This document shows, piece after piece, positions 43,795 to 48,174 of a stretch of DNA of 64,000 nt; the stretch's first letter is position 1; every line of letters begins with the position of its first letter. The notes below the pieces were generated by a model. The model saw only the letters and a program-made list of their open reading frames with translations, did no database searches and was not told the DNA's origin. The stretch comes from an uncultured archaeon (GTDB lineage: Archaea > Asgardarchaeota > Thorarchaeia > Thorarchaeales > Thorarchaeaceae). Position numbers and translations under genes: made by a program. Location of the stretch: positions 32,001 through 96,000 of the forward strand of contig CAZSWP010000002.1 in assembly GCA_964610875.1 (NCBI GenBank), in the 5' to 3' direction.

Positions 43795-46700
43795 ATGACC
43801 AAGAATGCATCAAGAGTCATAGTTCTCACACTCCTAGCTTTATTCATATTCAGTTTATCTTCACCGATGGGGTCATCAAATGCTAGTCTGGATGACTCTC
43901 AGGAAAATTCTGCGGTCAAAATTGATTCTAGTTTGTTGAATTTGACAGGCAATGATCAAACAGACATTTTGATAGATTATAACGATGAGGAAGTGAATGA
44001 GCGCTTTATAGAGAATGCCTTACGGTCTGCGGATGCCTATGCGAAGGTCTTAGATAGTTTCTCAAATCTAGGGATAATTCACGCTAGAATCGCTGCAGAC
44101 GCTATCAAAAGACTTGCGGAGAATGACTTTATTGAGAGAATTACATCAAATACACCGGTAAAGATAGCACCTTTGGACTTCTATAATAAACCTGTACTTG
44201 CGAATGGAGAAGAATATGAATCACCAATAGATCTCATTGGAGCAAGAGATCTATGGGATCTTGGGTATAACGGTTCTGGAACAGTTATTGCTGTACTTGA
44301 TACCGGAGCAGATTTTCTCCATCCGGACCTTGATGATTTCGATGACAACGGAACAATTCTCTCTAAGGTCGCTGCTTTTGCCTCGTTCGTTGAGTTCGAC
44401 TCATTACCTATAGATTTGATAGGACATGGTACCTATGCTACTTCTGTGGCTGCAGGAACTGGCAACGCATCTGAAGGATTGTATGCAGGTATTGCTCCTG
44501 GCGCAACTATACTAGCAGCAAAAGTTACCTTCGGTGGATTATTGGCACTCCCCAACTGGATTGTGTCAGGAATAGAATGGGCATCAAGCAGAGGAGCGGA
44601 CATTATTCTCATGCCGTTCAATACGTTCGGTACACCCGGGGATGCTGTTGATATTGCTGTAAAGGCTGCTGTTCAGAGAGGCATCTTTGTGGTGGCAGCT
44701 GCGGGAGATGATGGTCCAGATTATCTCACTGTTCTTTCCCCAGGAGGAGGCCCTGAATGCTTCACAGTAGGAGCTTATGATACAGTAAATGAAGAAGTAC
44801 CAGCATTTTCTGGGAGAGGGCCATCTTTGGGCCTAATGACTAAACCAGACATTGTTGCGCCCGGAACAAATATAGTAGGTGCTAAAGCAGGTGCAGGATT
44901 GGGAGAGTTTGGATTGGGCGACCTCGACCTAAACGATGTTGGAGATTTTGGAGGGTTACTTGGAGATTCCTTAGGAGAATCTATTGATGAGAACTACATT
45001 GTAGCAGACACTACCGCTGCATCAGCCGCTATTGTTGCAGGTGCCGCAGCAATTCTAATGCAAGCCTTTGATCGAGCAACGCCTATTGTGTTGGGTAATG
45101 TTCTCCGTGATACTGCAACAGAACTTCCATACGGAGCCAATGACGCAGGAGCAGGGCTGCTAAATCTACCGGCAGCCTTTGACTATCTCAGCAGAATACA
45201 ATCTCCAAAGCAGCCAGAAAATAGGACAACGGGAACACCCTTACTTGCATTTGGTATCACCAATGCCGCAGGTAGAAATGCCTCAACTACTCTTTTGATG
45301 AGTAACTTTGGGTCTACCTTGATTGCGTTAGATGACCGTGGAGTTCAGGAGACCAGTTTACATCTCTTAATGGGTATGTTTTCACTGAAATGGAATAATG
45401 AAGACCCCACCAACCTTTTGATGTTCGACATTGAACGTGAACTTCACCAAGTAGCAGCAGCAGGAACAACGAACAACTATAATCGATATCTTGGAGTGCT
45501 TTCATATGATGATACATTATTTGTTACACTCGTTGTTGAATCCTATAATCTGAGTCTCGTGACTCCCCTGCCATTGACAGCATTCAAAATCACGCCTTAT
45601 ATTCTGAATCTTGGTGATTCCGTAATCGATAATGTCAGTCTGTATTTGTCCTATTCACTTGATCTCTTCTCGGACGGTCTCGATGACCATGGAAAATATG
45701 CTTTAGGAAATCAAGAGCTCTTTGCTTACGGGATATCAGAAGACTATGGCAATTTTTACTTTGGCGTAAACTCAAGCAAAAAGCTTGATGCATTCGAGGT
45801 CGGCAATTCCTCTGAAATACCATCGCATATTAGTAATGATAATCTTACAGGTTCTACATCATTCGATGGTTCTGTCGGATTGGGAATGAAATGGCACTTC
45901 GGACGAATATATCCAGGTCAGCCAGTGAATGTTACCATTGTTACAGGATTTGGAGAGAATAGGACCATTCTTGATGCATCTATTCAGGATATATGGGCGA
46001 GAACGCCTTCTGCAACATTCACAAATCGTGGAGACCTCATTGTAATAAATGCAGATATACCAAGAACTGCACAAGCTGGTGTGACCTACAAATCAAAAGC
46101 AATAGTAATGAACGTCGGAGTAGAATCTTCTCCTATCATCGCTGCCATGATTATTGGAGAGGGAGAAAATGATAGCGGTGCGCTATTTGGCACGTATTTT
46201 AATTTTGAAGATGTAGAGCCGTTCCATGCCAAGTTAGTAAACACAGAATGGAGCCCAGAAAAAGAAGGACTACATACTGCAGGATGGGTAGTGGCAGGCG
46301 AATTAGGTGATGCTGTTGGTTTCATTTCAAGTCCCACACAAGTGTTAACCGAGTCAGCATTGACACTTTCAGATGATTTTCTGCTCAGAGACCTCTTTGT
46401 TGTAACTCCAATCACGTCAACATCCGTATTTCCCAAAATAGTGCCATTTGGTCCCTTTGACATTCGTTTTCCTATAGATTTTGGACTATATTCTTTCAGT
46501 TTATCCACAACTGTAGATTTAGGAAATCTTACTATCATCCCCCATGGAAATGCAACTGATTGGGGAAATATGTCACTTAATGCTGTTGACTCGGTGAATG
46601 GGTTCTACAATTTTTCATTATTCCTACTAGCACCCTTTATCATGATGGATGGGTATCATAAGACAGATTATGTCCTTGAAACGGATCTGGGATGGACAAC

Positions 46701-48174
46701 AAACATCACTTTGGAGAGGACCATTCAATATCCAAGAGCAATGATGTTGATGGATACTTCACACGGTGGAGGGTTCAGCTCATTTTTGGGGGACGGTGAT
46801 GGATTCAGTCTAGGAGGAGATACAGGGGGAGATGTTGGAGGGTTGCCAAGCTTTCCACTCGCGCAAGATGACTTTGGGGACATCGGTGGAGAAATGGATA
46901 TTGGAGGAATTGGAGACTTGGGAAACCTAGGGTCTCTCGATGACCTGCTAGAGTCCATAAGGTTGACTACATTCTCAGGATTATCCAATATGAAGAAAAT
47001 GATGGCAGAAAAGGGATTACAATTACTAGAGACACCAGGCTTGGAATTGGATCTTACACTACTATCCCAATTTTCAGCTGTCTTTATGTTTGCTCCATCA
47101 GAGGAATTCAATTCAACTGACAGGAGTATCATGGCAAATTATACAGCAGGAGGAGGAAAGCTCATCCTCTTTGGTGACTATGAAGATAGAGCAAACCTCA
47201 CTGTGATTAATGGCCTGCTTGAAAAATACGGATATGAGATGCGAGGAAAACATGAGAAAGAAAATACTACTGAGATAGTAACCGATTCAATTCTAGGAAC
47301 AGGAATGAGCTCCATGTGGCTTGGCGGAGGAACATTCATTGTAAACAATCATTCCTTTAGTAATGTAAATCTCGATGGAAACCCGGTTGTTCTGGTTGAT
47401 GAGTCAGTGCCAGAGCTAGTTCTATTTGGTTCATCGAGAATATTCATGAATAAACATCTTGTGAAAGAAGATAATGAGATTCTTCTTGGAAACCTGATAG
47501 AGTATTTGCTTCTTGATACTCTGACAACTCGAACAAGTCTTTCGGAAAATACAACTAGATATCGTGCAGGTCAGAGTGTATATCTCAATCTAGAGGTCTA
47601 TGACTATTATGGAGACCCTGTCAATGACCTATTCGTTGCAATAGTGTTCGAGCTGCCCAATGGAAATCAATCATTCTTCATTGCAGGATTTGTTGAAGAT
47701 GGTCTCTACTCATCGCAATTCACACCAAGCACATGGTCTAAGGCTGGAAAGATAAATGGCATATTCATTATCCTGAGAGATGAATACGCAGGGACATACG
47801 CCAGTATTAGTTTTGAGCTATATGAAGATGAGAAACCAATACCTACTGAAGAACCAACAAGTCTGCTCACACTACCCCAAATCGCATTTATTGTATCGAT
47901 TGGGATGTTTGGAACTACAATCACCCTCCTCGTTCTCAACAAGTATCAGCGTGGGAAAAGGTATAGAATCATAGAGGCAGATACAACGTTGACACAGGAT
48001 ATTGATAATTCATTCAATATGTTACTAGCGACTTTCGTCCAAATGGAAGATTTAATCTCAAGAGAAGATATGGACCGTATTCAGAAAGTGGAAGCACTTC
48101 GCACATTGATGGTCAGCTTGGAGAAGGCTCGGAAAGAGTTTGAGAATATCAGTGACAAAGTGGGAGGCGTATAA
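43795..48174 (+). CDS. Membrane-anchored subtilase (S8) homolog lacking the catalytic Ser, with GIFT-like domain, TM helix and cytoplasmic helical tail
   Basis: Signal peptide; VLDTG and GHGT present; AAGD replaces AAGN; DTTAASAAIVAG replaces SGTSMATPHVAG; MDTSHG...APSEEF...GGKLILFGD; C-terminal TM. Confidence 0.8.
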   Translation: MTKNASRVIVLTLLALFIFSLSSPMGSSNASLDDSQENSAVKIDSSLLNLTGNDQTDILIDYNDEEVNERFIENALRSADAYAKVLDSFSNLGIIHARIAADAIKRLAENDFIERITSNTPVKIAPLDFYNKPVLANGEEYESPIDLIGARDLWDLGYNGSGTVIAVLDTGADFLHPDLDDFDDNGTILSKVAAFASFVEFDSLPIDLIGHGTYATSVAAGTGNASEGLYAGIAPGATILAAKVTFGGLLALPNWIVSGIEWASSRGADIILMPFNTFGTPGDAVDIAVKAAVQRGIFVVAAAGDDGPDYLTVLSPGGGPECFTVGAYDTVNEEVPAFSGRGPSLGLMTKPDIVAPGTNIVGAKAGAGLGEFGLGDLDLNDVGDFGGLLGDSLGESIDENYIVADTTAASAAIVAGAAAILMQAFDRATPIVLGNVLRDTATELPYGANDAGAGLLNLPAAFDYLSRIQSPKQPENRTTGTPLLAFGITNAAGRNASTTLLMSNFGSTLIALDDRGVQETSLHLLMGMFSLKWNNEDPTNLLMFDIERELHQVAAAGTTNNYNRYLGVLSYDDTLFVTLVVESYNLSLVTPLPLTAFKITPYILNLGDSVIDNVSLYLSYSLDLFSDGLDDHGKYALGNQELFAYGISEDYGNFYFGVNSSKKLDAFEVGNSSEIPSHISNDNLTGSTSFDGSVGLGMKWHFGRIYPGQPVNVTIVTGFGENRTILDASIQDIWARTPSATFTNRGDLIVINADIPRTAQAGVTYKSKAIVMNVGVESSPIIAAMIIGEGENDSGALFGTYFNFEDVEPFHAKLVNTEWSPEKEGLHTAGWVVAGELGDAVGFISSPTQVLTESALTLSDDFLLRDLFVVTPITSTSVFPKIVPFGPFDIRFPIDFGLYSFSLSTTVDLGNLTIIPHGNATDWGNMSLNAVDSVNGFYNFSLFLLAPFIMMDGYHKTDYVLETDLGWTTNITLERTIQYPRAMMLMDTSHGGGFSSFLGDGDGFSLGGDTGGDVGGLPSFPLAQDDFGDIGGEMDIGGIGDLGNLGSLDDLLESIRLTTFSGLSNMKKMMAEKGLQLLETPGLELDLTLLSQFSAVFMFAPSEEFNSTDRSIMANYTAGGGKLILFGDYEDRANLTVINGLLEKYGYEMRGKHEKENTTEIVTDSILGTGMSSMWLGGGTFIVNNHSFSNVNLDGNPVVLVDESVPELVLFGSSRIFMNKHLVKEDNEILLGNLIEYLLLDTLTTRTSLSENTTRYRAGQSVYLNLEVYDYYGDPVNDLFVAIVFELPNGNQSFFIAGFVEDGLYSSQFTPSTWSKAGKINGIFIILRDEYAGTYASISFELYEDEKPIPTEEPTSLLTLPQIAFIVSIGMFGTTITLLVLNKYQRGKRYRIIEADTTLTQDIDNSFNMLLATFVQMEDLISREDMDRIQKVEALRTLMVSLEKARKEFENISDKVGGV

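Follow-up and report, generated by a model that had tools for sequence, protein, structure and literature searches.

A Predicted Pseudo-Subtilase with an IFT52-like GIFT Domain, Encoded Within an ABC-2 Transporter Gene Cluster of Thorarchaeia

Introduction

Site-1 protease (S1P; MBTPS1/SKI-1, PDB 8UW8) is composed of a propeptide, an S8 protease domain, a P-like subdomain, a GIFT subdomain (residues 617–998), and a transmembrane (TM) helix (PMC11231238). GldG, a bacterial protein with a GIFT domain, is thought to make an ATP-binding cassette (ABC) transporter with GldA and GldF (PMC5682007). Here, we analyzed a 64,000-nucleotide stretch of DNA (the window; positions 32,001–96,000 of contig CAZSWP010000002.1, assembly GCA_964610875.1) from an uncultured Asgard archaeon of the Thorarchaeales, in which the gene at 43795–48174 encodes a 1459-aa protein, predicted from the list of open reading frames (ORFs) and the translation to be a type-I membrane protein, that resembles both. 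It combines kinds of protein that are already known, a GIFT-type ABC accessory protein being fused to what appears to be a dead subtilase. Coordinates are window positions, on the plus strand unless marked otherwise.

The protein shares with S1P the order of its parts, namely propeptide, S8 domain, P-like domain on the S8 domain, GIFT domain, single C-terminal TM helix, and cytoplasmic tail. On the other hand, S1P is an active, autoprocessing protease, whereas the nucleophile and oxyanion residues are gone here, and S1P lacks the supersandwich insert, the macroglobulin (MG)-like domain, the long helical tail, and the ABC transporter linkage that are all present here. Other described systems match parts of the chain. 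Tk-SP of Thermococcus kodakarensis (3AFG, 9UES) has the closest S8 domain, with a similar propeptide and following beta domain, but is an active secreted protease without a GIFT domain or TM helix. The N-terminal GIFT domain of IFT52 (PDB 5FMS, 5FMR) is the best GIFT match by both fold and profile, although IFT52 is found in the cytoplasm as part of the IFT-B complex and has neither protease domain nor TM helix. OST48/DDOST and yeast Wbp1 (6S7O chain G, 6C26 chain B) consist of a GIFT domain, a beta-sandwich, and a single TM helix and match the C-terminal module end to end; they are, however, oligosaccharyltransferase subunits without an S8 head, and the match has weak profile support and a large root-mean-square deviation (rmsd). 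GldG and other ABC_transp_aux (PF09822) proteins are likewise membrane-anchored GIFT proteins, encoded next to an ABC-2 permease and an ABC ATPase, with a non-enzymatic and poorly understood function, but GldG is bacterial and has no subtilase, supersandwich, or P-like domain, and here there are two distinct ATPases. Finally, CspC and CspA of Clostridioides difficile and PCSK9 have S8 folds and work through binding instead of cleaving external substrates; the Csp proteins are soluble spore proteins, PCSK9 still autoprocesses, and all of them lack a GIFT domain, TM helix, and ABC partner.

Results

Loss of Catalytic Residues in the S8 Domain

Could the S8 domain still act as a protease? We assigned its active-site positions by sequence alignment. 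The catalytic Asp (Asp169, 44299–44301; VLDTG, aa 167–171) and the catalytic His (His211, 44425–44427; GHGT, aa 210–213) are both retained, as an initial annotation of this DNA had noted. The same annotation had read an Ala at the Ser position of the nucleophile motif and an Asp in place of the oxyanion Asn, and both readings held. The nucleophile region is DTTAASAAIVAG (aa 405–416, 45007–45042), and three independent, ungapped alignments, by HMMER with Tk-SP and Vpr and by BLASTP with an active paralog, set Ala408 (45016–45018) on the catalytic Ser and Asp305 (44707–44709; AAGDDG, aa 302–307, versus AAGNSG) on the oxyanion-hole Asn. The references were Tk-SP 3afg, itself a Ser-to-Ala mutant, Vpr 8jmw (...TSMASPHVAG), and the paralog from the same genome, which has SGTSASAP and AAGNSGP at these sites. 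Furthermore, MPFNTFG (44611–44631), aligned with ISLSLGG of the active paralog, stands in place of the substrate-binding strand SLGG.

Among 40 Thorarchaeal orthologs, the oxyanion position was Asp in every one, while the nucleophile position was Ala in 25, Thr in 13, and Ser in 2. With Ala, Thr, and Ser toggling by single-base changes, no catalytic constraint appears to act at this position. The Asp was kept in 39 orthologs and lost in 1, and the His, present here, is decaying in the family (His in 34, Ser in 3, Pro in 3). P274, F275, and N276, the PFN motif that replaces the SLGG strand, were invariant in the same 40 sequences. Across 21 representative genomes from eight Asgard families, the nucleophile position was Ala, Gly, Asp, or Leu and never Ser, the oxyanion residue was Asp in 21/21, and the catalytic His had become Arg in three families outside Thorarchaeia. 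Among metagenomic cluster representatives, two had Ser at the nucleophile position and two kept the oxyanion Asn, these being distant members. By contrast, the Asp, His, Asn, and Ser are all invariant in the active sister family.

Within the protein, conservation is highest in the S8 core (majority fraction 0.80–0.81 versus 0.54–0.75 elsewhere). As judged from these alignments, the view that the 43795–48174 product is a pseudoprotease, first put forward in the initial annotation, is supported: the nucleophile and oxyanion residues appear to have been lost family-wide, with the nucleophile position left to drift. The catalytic site would have been dead since ancient time in a domain that is, by its conservation, apparently not decaying. 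Since it is the best-conserved domain and carries the invariant PFN motif, the dead S8 domain is best explained as a remodelled binding surface under selection, and we infer that the S8 head serves as a binding module.

The Thorarchaeal orthologs form more than 100 clusters at 53–63% identity, and every label among the nearest proteins was Thorarchaeota or Promethearchaeota. Distant full-length homologs (21–37% identity, 1278–1658 aa) carried names including Hodarchaeales, Helarchaeota, Ranarchaeia, and Promethearchaeota. A phmmer search with the 989 residues that follow the S8 domain against 1.84 billion representatives gave only 40 matches, and all of those with a source name that was looked up were Asgard. 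Three sequences considered as a stand-alone GIFT–TM–tail short form (P0137, P0144, and P0157) were rejected as fragments, on contigs of 2.3–2.6 kb.

Linkage to an ABC-2 Transporter

The pseudoprotease gene is the third of five genes that lie on one strand with gaps of 0–18 nt or overlaps. The cluster begins with an ABC-2 permease of 408 aa (40855–42081; Pfam ABC2_membrane_3, E 8e-29), followed by ABC ATPase 1 (42082–43776; Pfam ABC_tran and Regulator_TrmB), which has 564 aa including a 245-aa N-terminal extension and ends 18 nt before the pseudoprotease start. The extension (42082–42816) matches the C-terminal domain of the archaeal regulator TrmB. ABC ATPase 2, of about 327 aa (48171–49154; ABC_tran; also syntenic), abuts or overlaps the pseudoprotease stop codon; a full ABC_tran match needs a start at ATA 48171, ATT 48174, or CTG 48177, and in the stretch 48153–48423 no ATG, GTG, or TTG precedes its Walker A motif. 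The last gene (49151–55909; Pfam TSP3_bac, E 5e-102), whose ATG overlaps the ATPase 2 stop, encodes a giant FG-GAP propeller/TSP3-repeat membrane protein of 2252 aa. This giant protein consists of a signal peptide, an FG-GAP-type propeller that weakly matches BBS7/BBS2-like sequences, Ca-binding TSP3 repeats (at least 18), a TM helix, and a cytoplasmic domain that has about 120 aa and looks folded.

The order permease, ATPase 1, pseudoprotease, ATPase 2 was the same in every Thorarchaeal locus with enough flank. Beyond Thorarchaeia (family f1 in our numbering of Asgard families), the neighbours of the pseudoprotease gene in f2, genus g39 of f9, f12, f19, and f24 still include genes like those for ATPase 1 and ATPase 2, as well as one or two ABC-2 permeases; order or orientation is rearranged in f9-g39, f19, and f24 but not in f2 and f12. 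The giant TSP3 gene lies downstream in Thorarchaeia and in the one sampled genome of the sister family f2, and it was absent beside the pseudoprotease gene in the loci of the other families, where ABC genes flank.

We then compared the distributions of the two proteins in 301 sampled Asgard genomes. The middle region specific to the pseudoprotease was present in f1, f2, f7, f9 (genus g39 only), f12, f19, f24, and f30, and the ATPase 1 extension was detected in f1, f2, f7, f12, f19, and f30, the matches in f21 being weak and falling on small ORFs. In f9-g39 and f24, the neighbouring ATPases align from residues 10–30, so that the extension is present there, too divergent for the Thorarchaeal query. 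Both the pseudoprotease and the extension were not found in the sampled genomes of f5 (28), f14 (11), f22 (21), and f27 (11). At the family level, the distribution of the ATPase extension matches that of the pseudoprotease.

Domain Architecture

Two AlphaFold models were made, covering aa 31–1000 (predicted local distance difference test, pLDDT, 77.7) and aa 1040–1459 (pLDDT 78.2). The signal peptide (aa 1–30, 43795–43884) is a hydrophobic N-terminus that ends in ...SSNA and is of low conservation (0.32). It is followed by a subtilisin-type propeptide-like domain (aa about 40–125, 43912–44169), modelled as a beta-alpha-beta-beta-alpha-beta unit (model residues 25–88); the best Foldseek match of the N-terminal model was ProN-Tk-SP (3afg), which speaks for a propeptide, and the hhalign alignment with the active family begins in this region. 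The S8 subtilase domain, predicted to be catalytically dead, covers aa 146–470 (44230–45204). Pfam Peptidase_S8 (PF00082) spans aa 160–450 (E 1.7e-37), Tk-SP is the closest by sequence (E 2e-36) and by fold (Z 40.3 and 38.0), and subtilisins give TM-scores of 0.8–0.87 when normalised to target length. Compared with Tk-SP, the domain has an extra Gly/Asp/Leu-rich loop insertion (aa 366–399, 44890–44991; pLDDT <50).

The next approximately 370 aa (aa 484–857, 45244–46365) form a beta-supersandwich that resembles the N-domains of glucoamylase, glucodextranase, and dextran dextrinase; the VIA-align matches, over model range 454–827, have Z 20.9, 20.6, and 19.8, with 227–239 residues aligned. A P-like beta-sandwich (aa 858–985, 46366–46749) then returns to the S8 domain and lies against it; fold alignments with S1P, Tk-SP, Vpr, SBT3, and furin continue past the S8 domain to model residues about 900–950. 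The Gly/Asp-rich linker that follows (aa 986–1050, 46750–46944) is of low complexity, appears flexible, and has pLDDT <50 at the ends of both models. The low-confidence stretches at 44890–44991 and 46750–46944 are alike in their Gly/Asp/Leu-rich composition, one coming before the dead nucleophile motif and the other before the GIFT domain, and might be either flexible or Ca-binding.

After the GIFT domain (aa 1058–1242, 46966–47520; assigned by VIA-align, profile search, and Pfam), a macroglobulin/Ig-like beta-sandwich (aa 1243–1346, 47521–47832) matches MG domains of alpha-2-macroglobulin, C5, and C3 and an invasin domain (VIA-align Z about 11.5–12). The TM helix (aa 1357–1381, 47863–47937) is a hydrophobic segment followed by the basic NKYQRGKRYR, is helical in the model, and is present in all families. 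The cytoplasmic tail (aa 1382–1459, 47938–48171) has 78 aa and two long predicted helices (model residues 358–383 and 389–417). The tail has an IPELD-like motif and a conserved ...G(E/V) end and can be aligned in every one of the eight Asgard families; this implies a partner in the cytoplasm that is likewise conserved. The GIFT-like domain, the TM helix, and the helical tail of about 80 aa had been recognized in the initial annotation and were all recovered; the supersandwich, P-like, and macroglobulin-like domains of the ectodomain were missing from it.

The ectodomain contains 26 N-glycosylation sequons, many of them invariant, versus 11.2 ± 3.2 expected, and there is one Cys in the entire 1459-aa protein. 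Given the sequon excess, the single Cys, the signal peptide, and the positive-inside rule, the product is predicted to be a type-I surface membrane glycoprotein.

The GIFT Domain

When the C-terminal model was compared with 48,161 chains by VIA-align, the top four were IFT52 (Z 19.4), OST48 (16.3), Wbp1 (15.3), and S1P (15.1), and generic GATase1-like and ThuA-like proteins came below these known GIFT domains (Z 10–14.6). The superposition with IFT52 has an rmsd of 2.4 Å over 181 residues. OST48 matches the whole C-terminal module (Foldseek E 4e-11 over the full length; VIA-align over 316 residues, rmsd about 14 Å).

A GIFT-only profile made from the eight families and searched against 177,635 PDB sequences matched IFT52 (E 1.9e-14), S1P (6.4e-6), and Wbp1 (0.008) and nothing else below 0.01, with OST48 at 0.16. 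A GIFT profile from the active relatives gave 5.8e-17 for IFT52 and 2.4e-6 for S1P. Pfam IFT52_GIFT (PF23355) matches 18 of 19 family members and is borderline in this protein (aa 1085–1148; 28.0 bits, cutoff 27.2). ABC_transp_aux matches 16 of the 19 at E < 0.01, mostly under the gathering score; the 34.7-bit cutoff is passed by two of the members scanned, P0140 (35.2 bits) and P0142 (38.7 bits). Because sequence profile and fold agree, the GIFT assignment is solid, and this Asgard protein has an IFT52-like GIFT domain.

Comparison with S1P

How close is the protein to S1P itself? S1P (8uw8_A) was the sole solved chain to match both models colinearly. Its residues 190–618 align with the S8 and P-like domains (VIA-align Z 36.4, 382 residues, the longest alignment of any chain), and its residues 652–873 align with the GIFT domain. 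These colinear matches to both models show that the architectural resemblance is real, and the S1P-like architecture of the initial annotation therefore stands as to fold and domain order (Z 36.4 and 15.1; profile E 6.4e-6).

Two comparisons speak against a specific link to S1P. S8 identity is 34–35% to Tk-SP versus 19% to S1P, and the GIFT domain is nearer to IFT52 than to S1P by both profile and fold; the kinship of the dead protein to S1P may thus be no closer than that to other subtilases. In the Foldseek search with the 970-residue model, S1P was not singled out and ranked 28 and 36 amid generic subtilisins; its long colinear match emerged from the full VIA-align scan alone. Pfam MBTPS1_3rd and MBTPS1_4th have no match in this protein, and MBTPS1_4th is matched by 2 of 19 family members, at best with 35.9 bits. 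With language-model features, S1P clusters ranked third for the dead protein (0.85), which we take as a lead only.

Catalytically Intact Relatives

The same genome encodes an intact paralog on contig 21 (L134:1279-4134:-; full form P0181, 971 aa; length 951–971 aa). It has a propeptide, an S8 domain, a beta domain, a GIFT domain, a sandwich, a TM helix, and a short basic tail, without the supersandwich, and its triad is intact (LDTG, GHGT, SGTSASAP), as is AAGNSGP. In 24 Thorarchaeal members of this active family, the triad and the oxyanion Asn are invariant. Between the active and dead families, homology begins at the propeptide and extends through the MG-like domain (hhalign probability 100%, E 4e-90, 817 columns), and the hhalign alignment marks the supersandwich as an insertion in the dead family relative to its active relatives. 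The Thorarchaeal-type active paralog was present in 65 of 76 Thorarchaeal genomes sampled.

Intact S8 triads together with a GIFT domain and a C-terminal TM helix were also found in proteins of 937–1324 aa from f3, f6, f8, f13, f15, f18, f21, and f28 (L141–L148), many of which have a cytoplasmic zinc-ribbon tail (CPYCG...C..CG). As a separate observation, contig 7 of the same genome encodes a 666-aa protein (L132:193-2193:-) that is anchored at its N-terminus, keeps the S8 triad intact, and lacks a C-terminal TM helix; toward its C-terminus it matches those columns of the family profile that belong to the GIFT domain, which makes it a third S8–GIFT combination in this genome.

We built a tree of the S8 domain from 36 rows by a quick IQ-TREE search, with the catalytic columns retained and few outgroups. 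In this tree, the dead family forms one clade (Shimodaira–Hasegawa-like approximate likelihood-ratio test, SH-aLRT, 99) that is nested in an S8–GIFT clade (88) and is sister (90) to intact-triad proteins, most of them zinc-ribbon-tailed. The tree suggests that the active site died once, in an ancestor already S1P-like in architecture. The dead family would then be a derived offshoot of the intact S8–GIFT–TM relatives.

Language-model features placed eukaryotic S1P clusters directly behind the active paralog's own cluster (0.94, ranks 2–10), again only a lead. When the part of the active paralog that follows the S8 domain was used in a word-based search, a method blind to distant relatives, the matches were Asgard proteins only and included no eukaryotic S1P.

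Other Genes in the Window

Divergently upstream of the permease, an 801-aa ORF with no Pfam match (38230–40635, minus strand) is kept in Thorarchaeal loci at 26–45% identity, and directly after the giant TSP3 gene lies a gene for a 433-aa TPR protein (55986–57287). Farther away, the window encodes a 789-aa protein in which an FG-GAP/BBS-like beta-propeller is fused to a small GTPase, Ras/Rab-like, at the C-terminus (4627–6996, minus strand) and a GH38 alpha-mannosidase of 976 aa (22722–25652).

Discussion

What could a dead protease do next to an ABC transporter? We think it probable that the 43795–48174 product is a non-catalytic extracytoplasmic accessory or scaffold subunit of the surrounding ABC-2 transporter. 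The support is genomic, consisting of the operon packing, the synteny across families, and the matching phyletic patterns. The initial annotation had proposed a receptor or scaffold for the ABC system, and a tie to that system is very probable by the same three lines of genomic evidence. Physical association with the transporter, as well as what is bound or exported, is what we infer from that context.

In such a complex, the transporter would be made of one permease and two different ATPases, one with the tandem TrmB-like N-terminal extension. The propeptide of the dead protein would presumably be uncleavable. By analogy, the GIFT–sandwich–TM module might take the role of the GldG-type (ABC_transp_aux) GIFT proteins that stand beside ABC-2 permeases, the remodelled and conserved S8 head would be a binding module rather than an enzyme, and the tail could couple the pseudoprotease to the cytoplasmic ATPases.

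Several observations weigh against this account. Two Thorarchaeal orthologs have Ser back at the nucleophile position, together with the Asp and the His. The pseudoprotease gene is unlinked from ABC genes in f7 and f30, where the extension-bearing ATPase was found elsewhere in the same genomes. With the Thorarchaeal query alone, the extension was missed in f9-g39 and f24 at E 1e-6. Since related genomes are not independent, the co-occurrence amounts to about eight lineage-level presences. Furthermore, the protein itself lies below the Pfam cutoff for ABC_transp_aux, and the matches of its family are mostly below the gathering score.

Could the protein instead be an autonomous surface glycoprotein, such as an adhesin or an envelope- or S-layer-associated binder, whose tie to the ABC transporter and the giant TSP3 protein is one of co-regulation only? 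The big, glycosylated, multi-domain ectodomain, with its carbohydrate-enzyme-like supersandwich, MG-like, and GIFT modules, would suit such a role, and so would the separation of the gene from ABC genes in two families and the fact that active relatives of the same architecture are not at the ABC operon. We nevertheless consider it unlikely. The linkage survives the rearrangement of gene order in six families (f1, f2, f9-g39, f12, f19, and f24), the phyletic pattern is the same as that of the ATPase extension, and the two-helix tail, which a passive surface protein would not need, is kept Asgard-wide.

Regulation of the active S8–GIFT–TM paralogs, with which the dead protein would pair or whose substrates it would present or sequester, seems less likely again. 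There are precedents, in that the pseudoproteases CspC and CspA control the protease CspB and dead LytM factors control amidases under FtsEX. CspB, CspA, and CspC are strong fold matches of our protein (VIA-align Z 35.0, 32.0, and 29.1), with weak local NCBIfam matches to CspBA and CspC. This genome and most Thorarchaeal genomes sampled encode an active paralog of the same architecture, and the dead and active families are homologous end to end. However, the active paralog is unlinked, on a different contig, and the Thorarchaeal-type active family was not found with the Thorarchaeal query in f12 (0/19) and f24 (0/7), both of which have the dead protein, although other active S8–GIFT proteins could stand in for it there.

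It is improbable that the protein is an OST48/Wbp1-like subunit, working with an archaeal oligosaccharyltransferase or in lipid-linked glycan handling while the ABC-2 transporter flips or exports a glycan carrier. ABC-2 transporters do include glycan exporters, the GIFT–sandwich–TM module matches OST48 and Wbp1 end to end, and the supersandwich resembles glycoside hydrolase and phosphorylase domains. GIFT domains have also been proposed as sugar binders (PMC7226087). On the other hand, the profile likeness to Wbp1 and OST48 is weak and well under that to IFT52 and S1P, and the full-length superposition has the large rmsd given above. No STT3/AglB was seen among the window ORFs scanned, the rest of the genome not having been searched for AglB, and the reported Asgard WBP1 homologues are limited to Heimdallarchaeia (PMC10307638). 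Least probable of all is a hydrolase with an unconventional nucleophile, for which one could cite the Asp169 and His211 kept in most Thorarchaeal orthologs, the Thr (13/40) or Ser (2/40) at position 408, the invariant Thr407, or Ser410, since position 408 is Ala here and Ala, Gly, Asp, or Leu across families, Ser410 is Ala in 8 of 40 orthologs, Thr407 is the structural Thr of the GTS motif, the oxyanion Asn is gone nearly family-wide, the His is lost in several lineages, and the SLGG substrate strand has been replaced.

The preferred reading, that of a transporter subunit, describes a conserved Asgard module made of an ABC-2 permease, an ectodomain subunit that bears a GIFT domain, and two ATPases, of which one has an extension resembling a sensor; in Thorarchaeia, a giant surface protein with Ca repeats joins them. 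The gene, which is widespread in Asgard archaea and carries the annotation 'S8 family serine peptidase', would encode a non-peptidase, an ancient pseudoenzyme under strong constraint, and this membrane-anchored, ABC-linked case would join the few known pseudo-subtilases. A full-text literature search for 'Asgard' together with 'GIFT domain' returned nothing, and the dead family is undescribed in the searchable literature; S1P, IFT52, and subtilisin are unmentioned in certain recent structure-based Asgard surveys. What is new here is that intact S8–GIFT–TM relatives occur in Asgard genomes, including this one, and that the dead family is one clade among them.

The peculiar architecture of S1P thus exists in Asgard archaea, in the dead protein and in its intact relatives, and so does an IFT52-like GIFT domain. 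With these in hand, the origin of S1P and that of the GIFT domains of IFT52 and OST48 become testable by phylogeny and structure. It is plausible that the dead protein is relevant to the origin of S1P and IFT52, as the initial annotation had suggested, but the intact relatives are the better candidates. A more speculative idea, to which we give a rather low probability, is that the Asgard propeptide–S8–P-like–GIFT–TM superfamily, comprising intact branches, some of them zinc-ribbon-tailed, and one ancient, dead, ABC-wired branch, is the prokaryotic stock of eukaryotic S1P and possibly of the GIFT modules of IFT52 and OST48. If this is true, the odd architecture of S1P would be older than eukaryotes.

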